A DNA stretch of 64,000 nucleotides from Pseudomonas phage SW_PA2862_11_24: sequence record PV574406.1. One strand, given 5' to 3'. The stretch's first letter is position 1, and each line of letters opens with the position of its first letter. Of the stretch, positions 28,233 through 31,068 are shown in pieces. The translations under genes were made by a program, and so were the position numbers. The notes beneath the pieces were generated by a model. The model saw only the letters and a program-made list of their open reading frames with translations, ran no database searches and was not told the origin of the DNA.

Positions 28233-29921
28233 TTACACGCCGTTCTTAATCCGATAACGGATGGATTCCAGATCATTGTTCTTCAAATCTTCCGTGTCCC
28301 ACTTACCGTCTTTGAAGAACGTCCGCAGATGCCCGGTAGCTTCCTCTTCCTTCGACACATCATCCTTCAGTCGGAGGAACCGTCCATTGTCTTGGTCCCG
28401 GTACACTTTCAAGAGACCTTTAGCCGACTTCTTCTTGCTATCAGTCTTGGGGTCTTTGAAGATTGCAATGCCTTCTCCATTCACCTCGGTGTAGGTGGCC
28501 TTCACTGCGAACCCGAAGGTGTCTCGGGTATTGCACTGATAGGTGTAACTCCCAACTCCGAAGACCACGTTCAAGGATGCGAAACCTTTCTCCTTGAGCC
28601 GCTCCAAGATTTTGGCTGCCCGACGTGTGGTGATCGAATCCCCATAGATCAAACCGATATGAGAATCCAGCATCTTATAACCAGCTTCGTTTACAGTACC
28701 ACCGAAGGTTTCCCAAAGAACTTGGATAGCACCTTTCACCTGAGCCTCGCTAACTTCCTCTAGTTTATAGCCAACTACATACTCGTACTGGTCCCACTCG
28801 GTTGGAATGACCTTGAAATATTTATCTTCGAACTCTAGAACAAAAGCGTCATTTCCGTTGACCGCATCCATGATATCCCAGTGCTCAAGAGATTCAACAA
28901 CTTCCACATCGCCCAGTCCGCAGATAACCTCTACAGGATCGCCAGAATCGGGACGAACAACCAGCTTGCCGTCACGTTCCATGATCTGATCCTTGATGGA
29001 CGGCAGAATGTCAGTAAGCACGCCCCAGAAGTCGAAGCTGTCTGCCACGTAAGACAGAATACCACTCGGGAACTTACCCATCAGTTCAACAAGGAATCGA
29101 CGTTCTGCTTCCTCACGGCCACCTTTACCTTCTCCATCCTTCATTTCTTTCTCAATGCGGAGGATGTTACTAGTAGCTACAGCGTGTTCAGTCGCAGGAA
29201 CGGAGCAAGCTACCAAACCAGTCGCGTTATAGTAGTCCTCAGCATAAATAGCTGCTGCCAATGTGTCCGAACCTACGAACGAGGTCAAGTGACCAACACC
29301 ACTACGGGCTGCGTCTTCGATCCCGCTCATGCCCCGGGCACTGAAGTCGTGGAACTGAACAGACAGCAGGAAGTCGTCATAGCATCCAGTGTGATTCGCG
29401 TAGTATCGGCCCATAGCTGCGTATTCTGCGGCGATAGTGGCGTTAGTTGCGGTCTTCCAAGTCATAGCAGAAATCAGTGTTTCGTGGTAGTTCACCAGCC
29501 AGTAAAACTCAGGCAGGGTGTTCTTGATGGTGAGAACAGGCACACCCATCGGCACACTGACGCCTTCGGTAAGAGATTTTACCTCCAGAGGCAGATAACC
29601 GAGCTTGTGGAGGGCTCGAAGCTGCTCTACAGCTTCCATCTCACGGCCAAAGTAACCAGTCAGGAACCGGGCATACCGGCCAACTGCGTTCTCTTCGTCA
29701 GCCTTGAAGAAGCCTTCCCAAGACTCGACGATCTCCATCCAAGCAGCCCGCCCGCCGACCCACTTAAGAGTGCCGTCGTAGAAGTCGGTGGCGTGAGTCT
29801 TACGATAAATTTTGTCGGAACGAGGAGTCAGGTTGCTGTAGACGAGCTGAGTTCCTTCCGAGTACATCGAGCCGTGCCCAATCTTATAGCCATCGGTGGA
29901 CAGGTGCGGCAGAATTTTCAT
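28233..29921 (-). CDS. nadV: Nicotinamide phosphoribosyltransferase-like enzyme (Nampt/NadV family; candidate Namat of NARP1)
   Basis: 562 aa; N-terminal STDGYKIGH and PATEHAV motifs of the Nampt family; RBS AGGAGG. Confidence 0.75.
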   Translation of the reverse strand: MKILPHLSTDGYKIGHGSMYSEGTQLVYSNLTPRSDKIYRKTHATDFYDGTLKWVGGRAAWMEIVESWEGFFKADEENAVGRYARFLTGYFGREMEAVEQLRALHKLGYLPLEVKSLTEGVSVPMGVPVLTIKNTLPEFYWLVNYHETLISAMTWKTATNATIAAEYAAMGRYYANHTGCYDDFLLSVQFHDFSARGMSGIEDAARSGVGHLTSFVGSDTLAAAIYAEDYYNATGLVACSVPATEHAVATSNILRIEKEMKDGEGKGGREEAERRFLVELMGKFPSGILSYVADSFDFWGVLTDILPSIKDQIMERDGKLVVRPDSGDPVEVICGLGDVEVVESLEHWDIMDAVNGNDAFVLEFEDKYFKVIPTEWDQYEYVVGYKLEEVSEAQVKGAIQVLWETFGGTVNEAGYKMLDSHIGLIYGDSITTRRAAKILERLKEKGFASLNVVFGVGSYTYQCNTRDTFGFAVKATYTEVNGEGIAIFKDPKTDSKKKSAKGLLKVYRDQDNGRFLRLKDDVSKEEEATGHLRTFFKDGKWDTEDLKNNDLESIRYRIKNGV

Positions 29922-29977
29922 ATTATTTCCTCCTGTTGTGTTGAATGGGCCCAGATTATATCAATCTGGGCCTTATG

Positions 29978-30196
29978 TCAATACTCAATTTCTTCTACTG
30001 GTAGTGCCAGTACAGGGTAGACGCATGGAAGACGCAGTAATGGTTGCTTCTTGCTATGAAAGTCTTCCCAGAACTTCTCATGCAACACCTTGTACCTAGC
30101 GTCCAGTTCTTCCTTGGTATCGAACTCCTCTACCTTGACAACCCTCTTCTCTGGAGACGAGCGCTTATACTCCACAATCCATATACTCAAGCTCAT
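29978..30196 (-). CDS. hypothetical small protein
   Basis: 72 aa between the two NAD genes. Confidence 0.4.
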   Translation of the reverse strand: MSLSIWIVEYKRSSPEKRVVKVEEFDTKEELDARYKVLHEKFWEDFHSKKQPLLRLPCVYPVLALPVEEIEY

Positions 30197-31068
30197 AGCT
30201 TCTCAGCCCTAGAGTATTCGACAGGAACAACCATTAGCTCCGGGTGGTTCTCTTGAGGGAGGGTATCAGATGTGTATATGCACCCGAAGTCGTCCAGTAG
30301 ACAATCAACACCCTTGCTGAAGATTCCGTGGGTAACGAACAGATCAGGCAACACTTCACTGTACCCTCTAAGAGCTTTAGCTACGCTACGGAATGTAGCG
30401 CCTCCGTCACAGATATCGTCCAGAACAAGTAGCGGGAGTTCAGGATTGATATCCGAAGGATTCAGAATTTCAAAGCCTTCGATTTTGCCAGTCTGGAGGT
30501 CTCGCTTCTTATTGCAACGGATGATGACTCTGGCTCCAGTTTCCTTTGCAAATTGTTCAGTCCTTTTAGTAGCTCCGATATCTGGGGCCACAATCTGGTA
30601 CTGTTCCCAATCTGACCGATTCAACAACCCACCGAATACAGATGACTGAGACACAACCTCTACATTATTGATTAGGTGCAGAGTGGCCTCACTGTGAGGG
30701 TCCACAACGATGACCCGATCATACCCAGCCGAGTTAATCAGATTGGCGAACACTTTCAGGCTAAATGCGTCCCCGGGATTGCATCGACGGTCTTGTCGGG
30801 CATACGGGACATATCCCAAAAGAAGAGTCATGTGTGGTCGGCCCATTGCCGCTCGAATAGCCTCAGTGACATTGAGAAGTGCCATGATATCGTCACTGTT
30901 CTGAATCTGAGCTTTAACGTTCACAAAAGACCCTCCACTGGCATCAATTCCACTTACATTGACACCCACCTCACCGCCCGGGAATGTCCAGACCTTTGCC
31001 TCCTTCATAGGAAGTGCAAAACCCGGTTCTTCGATAGTAGCAAGGTAACCTGTTACGTAGCTAATCAT
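30193..31068 (-). CDS. prs: Ribose-phosphate pyrophosphokinase-like enzyme (Prs family; candidate Adps of NARP1)
   Basis: 291 aa; PRPP-binding motif LLVLDDICDGGATF; VVDPHSE; RBS AAGGAGG. Confidence 0.7.
   Translation of the reverse strand: MISYVTGYLATIEEPGFALPMKEAKVWTFPGGEVGVNVSGIDASGGSFVNVKAQIQNSDDIMALLNVTEAIRAAMGRPHMTLLLGYVPYARQDRRCNPGDAFSLKVFANLINSAGYDRVIVVDPHSEATLHLINNVEVVSQSSVFGGLLNRSDWEQYQIVAPDIGATKRTEQFAKETGARVIIRCNKKRDLQTGKIEGFEILNPSDINPELPLLVLDDICDGGATFRSVAKALRGYSEVLPDLFVTHGIFSKGVDCLLDDFGCIYTSDTLPQENHPELMVVPVEYSRAEKL

Follow-up and report, generated by a model that had tools for sequence, protein, structure and literature searches.

A Pakpunavirus locus with Adps, Namat and Adpp homologs that probably encodes the known phage NAD+ reconstitution pathway NARP1-AP

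The locus analyzed here lies in a 64,000-nt stretch of Pseudomonas phage SW_PA2862_11_24 (PV574406.1; hereafter the window), to which LN610575, the sequence of the PAK_P1-like Pakpunavirus vB_PaeM_C2-10_Ab08, is 100% identical and the RefSeq genome NC_019918 99.9% identical. The features of the locus are all encoded on the minus strand (Table 1). A preliminary description made from the sequence alone had reported a 562-aa Nampt-family ORF (with STDGYKIGH and PATEHAV) and a 291-aa Prs-family ORF (with LLVLDDICDGG), and both are present as described. The two genes had been placed 270 nt apart; the interval is 271 nt but is not empty, because it holds a 72-aa ORF whose start overlaps the stop codon of adps (ATGA). 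Similarly, the macro-domain gene had been called immediately adjacent; the macro ORF is real, but another small ORF separates it from namat, which makes it the second gene downstream of namat, with no change of strand. The stop codon of this second small ORF overlaps the adpp start. Counted from the first ATG it would encode 83 aa, yet its probable length is 65 aa, since its PHROG 6997 match covers residues 19–83 and thus begins only at residue 19. Pfam searches gave no match for either small ORF.

Since the genes lie on one strand and either overlap or follow closely on one another, the single operon that had been proposed is plausible, although a strong promoter-like element lies directly upstream of namat. 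It consists of TTGACA (29981–29976), a 15-nt spacer and TATAAT (29960–29955) with a TG-extended −10, both hexamers being perfect, and it overlaps a hairpin at 29972–29948 (RNA fold −20 kcal/mol, z = −3.6); between the element and the namat ATG, about 8 nt from the latter, is an AGGAGG ribosome-binding site. The identical promoter-like sequence is found in Ab1 and PAK_P1. A promoter scanner missed the element because it demands a spacer of 16–18 nt. Judging from these sequence features, the element may act as a promoter.

Table 1 Features of the locus and the evidence on which each assignment is based
Feature	Position	Strand	Basis
adps, ADP-ribose pyrophosphate synthetase (predicted), 291 aa	30193..31068	-	ORF, PHROG 619, Adps homology
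small ORF between adps and namat, 72 aa	29978..30196	-	PHROG 7663, E 1e-50
promoter-like element with overlapping hairpin	29948..29981	-	directly upstream of namat; sequence and RNA fold
namat, nicotinamide ADP-ribose transferase (predicted), 562 aa	28233..29921	-	ORF, PDB/PHROG matches, residues
small ORF between namat and adpp, 65–83 aa	28025..28276 (short form 28025-28222)	-	PHROG 6997, E 2e-44
adpp, Poa1p-like macro-domain ADP-ribose-1''-phosphate phosphatase (predicted), 159 aa	27549..28028	-	PHROG 335, Gary Adpp

For both enzymes of the core pair, chance can be dismissed as the source of the family matches. The Nampt-family protein is predicted to catalyze ADPR-PP + nicotinamide -> NAD+ + PPi. 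It matches Pfam NAPRTase (E 9e-38) and PHROG 448 (E 6.5e-194), and reaches 466 bits with NCBIfam NF006629, for which the cut-off is 405. In a PDB search the top matches were the crystal structures of SpbetaL1 Namat (9W5X/9W5W, 381 bits), whereas Nampt structures scored lower (Xcc, 175 bits; human, 168 bits). The two halves of the protein behave alike in this respect: validated Namats gave 204–237 bits with the N-terminal half and 234–237 bits with the C-terminal half, versus 104 and 45 bits for a NARP2-type phage Nampt. Overall similarity by itself is not fully discriminating, as the Nampt-family PDB entries 9KE8/9KEO, for which we found no publication and no phage match above 68%, reach 346 bits with the window Namat and yet have a non-aromatic clamp segment. 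At the residue level, D10, Y12, F193, R196, D219, H246 (catalytic), R323 and D325 are conserved. The catalytic core in SpbetaL1 Namat comprises F189, D215, R306, D308 and the catalytic His; all mutated or NAM/NMN-contacting residues are kept in the window protein, including R323, which corresponds to R306.

The SCH clamp segment of the window Namat reads G457-SYTYQCNTRD-467 and fits the Namat-specific consensus GSXphiXphiXphiTRD at 10 of 11 positions, with Tyr at position 3 (Y459) and Cys (C463), instead of Tyr or Phe, at position 7. Nampts are clearly different at this site (GGALLQKVDRD or GGGLLQKLTRD). C463 replaces one of the two adenine-stacking clamp residues, which is Tyr in SpbetaL1, Gary and Bas63; as published, the clamp positions are aromatic "most often", and single clamp mutations in SpbetaL1 lowered the activity just 1.3–1.7-fold. 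We considered whether the Cys is a clamp loss unique to this phage and rejected the idea, because it occurs in 12 of 71 Adps-linked homologs and is thus a feature of a clade. K37 aligns with R40 of SpbetaL1 in the selectivity-clamp loop, where Bas63 and Gary also have Lys, but the basic residue carries little weight since this loop has been described as variable. A 55-residue insertion (~337–391) likewise turned out not to be special, as insertions are found there in Bas63 and Gary too; across 80 Namat homologs the distance from RPDSG to YGD ranges from 48 to 167 residues.

The reaction predicted for the Prs-family protein is ADPR + ATP -> ADPR-PP + AMP. It matches Pfam Pribosyltran_N (E 7.8e-9) and PHROG 619 (E 2e-95) but stays far under the cut-off of every NCBIfam Prs equivalog model (for example 108 bits versus 297, and 86 bits versus 296 given for the best equivalog), and it is borderline against the broad subfamily model TIGR01251 (112.8 bits, cut-off 113). 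In blastp comparisons it scored 155 bits with Bas63 Adps (39% identity) and 126 bits with Gary Adps (35% identity), against 75.5 bits with E. coli Prs. SpbetaL1 Adps, the one Adps that has been purified, gave 76 bits, which is not above the E. coli Prs score. With this exception, the window proteins resemble validated Namat, Adps and Adpp far more than the Nampt and Prs controls. K187 aligns with K162 of SpbetaL1 Adps, whose K162A mutant is inactive, and with K194 of E. coli Prs, and the catalytic Lys is therefore conserved. The loop K-x-R-[DN]-x-x-T-G-x-I and the motif [DE]PHS (DPHS here) are common to the window protein and all five validated Adps, and both are absent in E. coli Prs, while the Prs-like motif YARQDRR is kept. 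By these sequence measures the protein is assigned to the phage Adps clade and appears not to be a bona fide ribose-phosphate diphosphokinase.

The product of the macro-domain gene matches Pfam Macro weakly (E 3e-4) and PHROG 335, annotated as a phosphatase, strongly (E 6e-61), and also matches the yeast Poa1p structures 6LFU/6LFQ (PDB, E 4e-6 to 3e-5). Its identity with the biochemically validated Adpp of Vibrio phage Gary is 40.5% over the full length (97 bits, E 4.6e-31), and both proteins contain HQxNC...MGxGIA and GLPxIGCGLAG. The predicted reaction is that of Adpp, ADPR-1''-P -> ADPR; the dephosphorylation of ADPR-1''-P and the requirement against aRES have been demonstrated for the Gary enzyme only (10.64898/2026.01.28.702374). 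The preliminary description underrated this neighbor, which is the published third enzyme of NARP1-AP.

Adps was found within 6 kb in 71 of 80 sampled viral Namat loci, and a macro gene in 18 of the 80; in the window, adps and namat share a strand with a single ORF between them. The reported lack of an NMN adenylyltransferase agrees with our searches: none is annotated in NC_019918, where the ~29 kb outside the window were checked by annotation only, and the (H/T)xGH-type NMNAT signature G-x-[FWY]-x-P-x-[HT]-x-[GA]-H is absent from all six reading frames of the window. NARP1 and NARP2 have in no case been found in the same phage.

The two small ORFs were each found in only three close Pakpunavirus loci among the 80 Namat loci; the 72-aa ORF thus belongs to this lineage and is no conserved component of NARP1. 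Just downstream of adpp lies a gene for a divergent SLOG-like protein (26497–27204), and RNA ligase, kinase and phosphoesterase genes adjoin the locus. Among 77 non-redundant loci, linkage of the macro gene to the ligase, kinase and phosphoesterase genes was not significant (Fisher p = 0.23, 0.23 and 0.07), and that to the SLOG-like gene reached p = 0.048, a value that is uncorrected and comes from tiny counts in phylogenetically related loci. Adpp and RyDEP supply ADPR for Adps from ADP-ribose-derived molecules in other phages, and it might be imagined that the small ORFs and the SLOG-like protein belong to NAD+ reconstitution as additional accessory components that inhibit host NADases or turn other ADP-ribose-derived molecules into ADPR; we regard such a role as unlikely. 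The N-terminal strings of the small ORFs were absent from the supplements of the aRad1 paper, a string match that is a weak test of whether they are aRad1 inhibitors.

The genes of this phage have been listed before. In the tables of the NARP1 paper (Osterman et al.), LN610575_00022 is an Adps homolog with Namat within 10 genes ("Yes", Table S1) and LN610575_00020 is a Namat that is "Adps-associated". Table S1 of the aRES preprint (Osterman et al. 2026, 10.64898/2026.01.28.702374) gives LN610575_00018 as MACRO, the ADPR-1''-phosphate phosphatase (Adpp) that accompanies the pair, which makes the locus one of the extended NARP1-AP pathway. Moreover, a 2025 Pakpunavirus genome paper (phage Adele, PMC12846349) annotated the orthologs as NARP1 with a Poa1p-like macro protein, and NARP1 calls in P. 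aeruginosa phages also come from DefenseFinder-based annotation. The match to NARP1 (Adps plus Namat) made in the preliminary description is therefore correct but not new, the phage's own genes being already in the papers that define the pathway; the assignment is supported by this literature and by the independent sequence tests above.

We consider that the locus represents the known phage NAD+ reconstitution pathway 1 together with its associated phosphatase (NARP1-AP), with a probability of roughly 0.88. By this pathway, a host defence such as a SIR2, TIR or SEFIR NADase would cleave NAD+ into ADP-ribose and nicotinamide; Adps would then transfer pyrophosphate from ATP onto ADP-ribose to give ADPR-PP, and Namat would put nicotinamide in place of the pyrophosphate, yielding NAD+ directly and making an Nmnat unnecessary. 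When an RES-type enzyme (aRES) yields ADPR-1''-phosphate, which Adps would be unable to use, Adpp would strip the phosphate first and so feed NARP1. The direct basis for this reading consists of the protein families, the catalytic and specificity residues, the gene linkage, the absence of an Nmnat and the prior cataloguing. What the enzymes of this phage catalyze, and that they counter defence, we infer from characterized homologs at 30–42% identity; the activities of Adps and Namat, with their preference for ADPR and ADPR-PP over ribose-5-phosphate and PRPP, have been demonstrated only for the homologs of SpbetaL1, Bas63, FADO, Gary and DyoEdafos. In the related phage PaP1, which has the same three genes, NAD+ ranked with the most strongly decreased metabolites at a late stage of infection, implying that the pathway does not hold NAD+ high under all conditions, and in a panel of 29 P. 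aeruginosa phages NARP1 was absent from the anti-defence genes significantly associated with infectivity.

Could the pair instead serve classical NAD+ salvage, the Prs homolog converting ribose-5-phosphate to PRPP and the Nampt homolog joining PRPP and nicotinamide to NMN, with host NadD, NadR or PncC finishing NAD+? It would then be an auxiliary metabolic pair that repairs no ADPR. This is what the usual annotation, NadV plus Prs, says in almost every deposited genome, as the preliminary description had noted, and the window proteins reach the cut-off of NCBIfam PRK09198 and nearly that of TIGR01251; the retained YARQDRR motif points in the same direction, as does the in vitro synthesis of NMN from PRPP by SpbetaL1 Namat if no ADPR-PP is offered. 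We nevertheless regard salvage as extremely improbable, because homologs that bear this annotation have been shown to work differently: SpbetaL1 Adps gave no Prs-type product, and Bas63 still beat the defence when its host lacked both pncC and nadR. In the window proteins, moreover, the clamp motif is of the Namat type but for C463, and the loop is of the Adps type; the scores with validated Namat are two to five times those with Nampt controls, and Adps misses all Prs equivalog cut-offs. A related view, that the enzymes perform NARP1 when ADPR is available and otherwise also supply NAD+ or nucleotide precursors through PRPP and NMN, the Cys-for-Tyr change loosening the specificity towards PRPP, draws on the PRPP-dependent NMN synthesis that Namat keeps in vitro, on clamp double mutants that lose the use of ADPR-PP but retain NMN synthesis, and on the Cys at clamp position 7 in the window and 11 related loci. 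Such dual use seems very unlikely to us: given both substrates, SpbetaL1 Namat made NAD+ only, mutating one clamp residue changes little, the validated Bas63 and Gary enzymes agree with the window protein at Y459 and at the K37 position, and there is no Nmnat to consume NMN.

It is also conceivable, but in our judgment unlikely, that the core pair is NARP1 while the macro protein is employed otherwise, either removing ADP-ribose from protein, DNA or RNA in the manner of DarG or TARG1 or clearing ADPR-1''-phosphate arising from RNA repair. ADP-ribosylation defences were speculated on in the Adele paper (PMC12846349), and the protein gives weak matches to OARD1/TARG1 and a DarG model. An additional ORF separates its gene from namat, and an RNA ligase, kinase and phosphoesterase set adjoins the locus both here and in phage Gary. 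The RNA-repair-like genes are, however, not significantly linked to the macro gene (p = 0.23 among the 77 non-redundant loci), and T4 Rnl1-type ligation involves no 2'-phosphate from which ADPR-1''-P would be generated, which counts against a role in RNA repair. The identity over the full length with Gary Adpp, an enzyme that dephosphorylates ADPR-1''-P and is needed against aRES, and the listing of the macro gene as NARP1-associated for LN610575 argue for Adpp.

Among the known systems, the NARP1-AP locus of Vibrio phage Gary (Adps gp181, Adpp gp182, Namat gp183; 10.64898/2026.01.28.702374) combines these three enzyme families, all encoded on a single strand, with identities to the window proteins of 35% (Adps), 40.5% (Adpp) and 41% (Namat). 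It also agrees with the window in the Lys at the SCL clamp position, in the site of the Namat insertion, and in having RNA ligase, ATPase and phosphoesterase genes as neighbors. The Gary genes are contiguous in the order adps-adpp-namat, whereas the order in the window is adps, the 72-aa ORF, namat, the 65-aa ORF and adpp; clamp position 7 is Tyr in Gary and Cys in the window phage, and the Gary pathway has been tested experimentally whereas that of the window is predicted. Escherichia phage Bas63 (JohannRWettstein) and Bacillus phage SpbetaL1 (Osterman et al. 2024) have Adps plus Namat, like the core of the window locus, but theirs are two-gene loci without the macro-domain phosphatase. Their Namats are 39–42% identical to that of the window, while Adps is 39% identical in Bas63 and just 30% in SpbetaL1. 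With these enzymes those of the window share, in SpbetaL1 numbering, Adps K162 (K187) and Namat R306 (R323), as well as the catalytic His and, apart from C463, the SCH clamp motif; SpbetaL1 Namat is without the ~50-residue insertion after RPDSGDP.

The Pakpunavirus phage Adele (PaAdele_024/022/020; PMC12846349), a different species of the same genus, has the orthologous set with the same every-second-gene spacing, already annotated as Adps, Namat and Poa1p-like macro protein; because that paper is older than the aRES work, the substrate of the macro protein was merely speculated on. NARP2 (Nampt plus Nmnat, Vibrio phage KVP40) and the cellular Nampt and Prs enzymes belong to the same superfamilies and have the Nampt-like catalytic core in common with the window proteins. 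Unlike NARP2, the window locus has no Nmnat, carries a Namat-type SCH segment and gives far lower scores with NARP2-type Nampts, and unlike cellular Prs its Prs homolog misses the Prs equivalog cut-offs.

The present locus adds nothing to the picture of NARP1, as its genes have been catalogued and are found by standard anti-defence annotation tools. Two points are of modest practical use: the deposited labels "NadV", "Prs" and "phosphatase" are functionally misleading for a widely used therapeutic genus, and mutating the clade-wide clamp Cys would be an inexpensive way to probe the specificity model in the literature. As a class, NARP1 and NARP1-AP show that viruses can rebuild a metabolite destroyed by host immunity, and they contribute to an understanding of which therapeutic Pseudomonas phages get past Thoeris, DSR, SIR2-HerA and aRES.

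The 4-kb region carrying the Prs-family and Nampt-family genes shows 100% identity with Pseudomonas phage vB_PaeM_C2-10_Ab08 (LN610575). Many PAK_P1-like phages (genus Pakpunavirus) match it at 91-99.9% identity, and 117 records cover at least 80% of it. NARP1 has been defined as a pathway in which Adps converts ADPR and ATP to ADPR-PP and Namat joins ADPR-PP to nicotinamide to give NAD+, rescuing phages from Thoeris I, DSR1/2, SIR2-HerA and SEFIR (Osterman et al., bioRxiv 10.1101/2024.02.11.579819; cited elsewhere as Nature 2024). The same paper lists LN610575_00022 among the Adps homologs (Table S1, "Namat within 10 genes: Yes") and LN610575_00020 as "Adps-associated" (Table S2). 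A later study showed that NAD+ cleavage by aRES yields ADPR-1''-phosphate, which NARP1 cannot use, and that a Poa1p-like macro-domain phosphatase, Adpp, found in 15% of NARP1 loci, restores ADPR; this form was named NARP1-AP, and Table S1 of that preprint contains LN610575_00022, LN610575_00020 and LN610575_00018, the MACRO sequence being identical to the window ORF (10.64898/2026.01.28.702374). In the 2025 paper on the Pakpunavirus Adele, the orthologous genes are named Adps, Namat and a Poa1p-like macro protein, and DefenseFinder detects NARP1 in a P. aeruginosa phage panel study. Thus the preliminary description was right to read the gene pair as NARP1, but this interpretation is already published for LN610575 and the locus is already known.

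The 562-aa protein matches Pfam NAPRTase (E 9e-38), PHROG 448 "nicotinamide phosphoribosyl transferase" (E 6.5e-194) and NCBIfam NF006629 (466 bits, cut-off 405 bits). When it was compared with characterised enzymes, as the preliminary description had proposed, it proved nearer to Namat than to Nampt: the top PDB matches were the SpbetaL1 Namat crystal structures 9W5X and 9W5W (381 bits), versus 175 bits for Xcc Nampt and 168 bits for human Nampt. By blastp it is 39-42% identical to the validated Namats of Bacillus phage SpbetaL1, Vibrio phage Gary and Escherichia phage Bas63 (341-370 bits). Two phage Nampt fragments of the NARP2 (Nmnat-associated) type from Table S2 served as Nampt controls; the N-terminal half scored 204-237 bits to Namats versus 104 bits to such a fragment, and the C-terminal half 234-237 versus 45 bits. 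All nicotinamide- or NMN-binding residues, and all those found important by mutation, are conserved: D10, Y12, F193, R196, D219, A243, H246 (the catalytic His), R323 (corresponding to R306), D325 and G427-D428. Relative to SpbetaL1 Namat the protein carries two insertions (residues about 250-265 and 337-391), the larger coming after the RPDSGDP motif; the RPDSG-to-YGD distance varies from 48 to 167 residues across 80 homologs (97 in the window), a general length-variable hot-spot.

The Namat signature GS-X-phi-X-phi-X-phi-TRD, which includes the adenine-stacking clamp, appears as GSYTYQCNTRD, whereas Nampts have GGALLQKVDRD (Xcc) or GGGLLQKLTRD (human), and a motif of the Namat type occurs in all 80 viral Namat loci. 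Position 7, an adenine-stacking Tyr in SpbetaL1, Gary and Bas63, is Cys463 here; in the 71 Adps-linked loci among the 80 it is Y (41), C (12), F (11), M (4), L (2) or H (1), every Cys case being one of the closest relatives of the window protein (at least 50% identity). A reading in which the gene pair serves both NARP1 and PRPP- or NMN-based supply, tied to this cysteine, seems to us very improbable: single clamp mutations lowered SpbetaL1 Namat activity only 1.3-1.7-fold, and we treat Cys463 as a clade variant, neither a mark against NARP1 nor a full match to the Namat signature. A solved 495-aa "nicotinamide phosphoribosyltransferase" (PDB 9KE8/9KEO) scores 346 bits to the window protein, nearly the level of SpbetaL1 Namat, and has a non-aromatic clamp segment, GAQTYQRNTRD; it would be a good protein on which to try the clamp model.

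In the family libraries, the 291-aa protein hits the Prs N-terminal domain (E 7.8e-9) and PHROG 619 (E 2e-95), and falls far under every NCBIfam Prs equivalog cut-off. The proposed alignment gave 155 bits to Bas63 Adps (39% identity) and 126 bits to Gary Adps (35%) versus 75.5 bits to E. coli Prs (31%), with FADO Adps at 85 bits (29%) and SpbetaL1 Adps at only 76 bits (30%); by overall similarity the protein is set apart from Prs only via Adps proteins of Gram-negative phages. In alignment it has in common with all five validated Adps a loop, K-x-R-[DN]-x-x-T-G-x-I, and a [DE]PHS motif, whereas E. coli Prs reads KRRP-RANV and DLHA at these sites. Of 70 viral homologs, 43 matched a strict regular expression for the loop, making it common, not universal. 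In alignment, K187 falls opposite K162, the catalytic lysine of SpbetaL1 Adps.

These motifs and scores, together with the experiments on homologs, contradict classical NadV/Prs salvage, which we consider extremely unlikely. No NMN adenylyltransferase was found, as the preliminary description had it: none is annotated in the 99.9%-identical RefSeq genome, and a regular-expression scan for the (H/T)xGH NMNAT signature drew a blank in every reading frame of the window, the positive control being the N-terminus of E. coli NadD.

The 159-aa macro-domain protein matches Pfam Macro (E 3e-4), PHROG 335 "phosphatase" (E 6e-61) and the yeast ADP-ribose 1''-phosphate phosphatase Poa1p (6LFU/6LFQ, E 4e-6 to 3e-5). 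It aligns over its full length with the biochemically validated Gary Adpp (40.5% identity, 97 bits, E 4.6e-31), with which it has HQxNC...MGxGIA and GLPxIGCGLAG motifs in common. A role other than Adpp, which would leave the core NARP1 assignment standing, is the less likely choice and in our view improbable.

Features of the locus and its flanks
Feature	Coordinates	Strand	Remarks
HD hydrolase	34338-34898	minus	upstream of adps
metallophosphoesterase	33363-33917	minus	calcineurin-type; upstream of adps
RNA ligase	31505-32422	minus	T4 Rnl1 family; upstream of adps
kinase-like ATPase	31078-31494	minus	AAA_33; directly upstream of adps
adps	30193-31068	minus	291 aa, Prs family
small ORF, PHROG 7663	29978-30196	minus	72 aa, E 1e-50; between adps and namat; start overlaps adps stop codon
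promoter-like element	29948-29981	minus	between 72-aa ORF and namat
possible namat extension	29922-29954	minus	33 nt from in-frame CTG
namat	28233-29921	minus	562 aa, Nampt family
small ORF, PHROG 6997	28025-28222/28276	minus	65-83 aa; between namat and macro gene
adpp (macro-domain gene)	27549-28028	minus	159 aa
"DprA-like" gene	26497-27204	minus	just downstream of macro gene; probable start Met43, about 27078

Both ORFs of the pair and their quoted motifs are present as described, and the interval between them is 271 nt, but it contains the 72-aa ORF; likewise, the macro gene is separated from namat by a small ORF and is not immediately adjacent. The start of the 72-aa ORF overlaps the adps stop, and the stop of the other small ORF overlaps the adpp start; neither has a Pfam match, and among the 80 Namat loci they were seen only in the three Pakpunavirus loci. 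Upstream of the namat AGGAGG/ATG lie perfect sigma-70 hexamers, TTGACA and TATAAT, with a TG-extended -10 and a 15-nt spacer, which our promoter scanner missed because it demands 16-18 nt; a stable hairpin of 9-11 bp (-20 kcal/mol, z = -3.6) overlaps this element, whose sequence is identical in Ab1 and PAK_P1. With such hexamers and a hairpin directly before namat, the "one operon" of the preliminary description is plausible, not established. The orthologous namat in RefSeq NC_019918 (comparison locus L005, 7681-9402) is annotated 33 nt longer (573 aa); the ATG, which AGGAGG precedes by about 8 nt, is more probably the true start.

The genes directly upstream of adps form an RNA-repair-like set, and the ligase/ATPase/phosphoesterase trio also adjoins NARP1-AP in the unrelated phage Gary and in four metagenomic loci (L012, L014, L017 and L018). 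Across 77 non-redundant loci, the macro gene was not significantly linked to RNA-repair-like genes (p = 0.07-0.23). In L014, L017 and L018, too, the "DprA-like" gene follows the macro gene; its product has only sub-threshold matches (DprA, E 3e-4; SLOG cluster 4, E 0.017; LOG, E 0.58) and resembles a divergent member of the SLOG superfamily. In Thoeris, signals derived from ADPR are bound by SLOG domains, and a role for this protein in the NARP1-AP context is conceivable.

We put the probability that the locus is NARP1-AP as published at about 0.88, its activities being predicted from homologs at 30-42% identity. In infection of P. aeruginosa PA1 by PaP1, NAD+ was among the two most decreased metabolites at a late stage, a fall that the authors put down to host metabolic shutdown (PMC5377924); PaP1, also a Pakpunavirus, is listed as carrying adps, namat and adpp too (10.64898/2026.01.28.702374). 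In one P. aeruginosa phage panel, the genes with a significant link to infectivity did not include NARP1. Since NARP1 works on ADPR and nicotinamide alone, neither result contradicts the NARP1-AP model; both caution against assuming a phenotype. In this model Adps would convert ADPR and ATP to ADPR-PP, from which Namat would form NAD+ with nicotinamide, while Adpp would turn the ADPR-1''-phosphate produced by aRES into ADPR that NARP1 can use.
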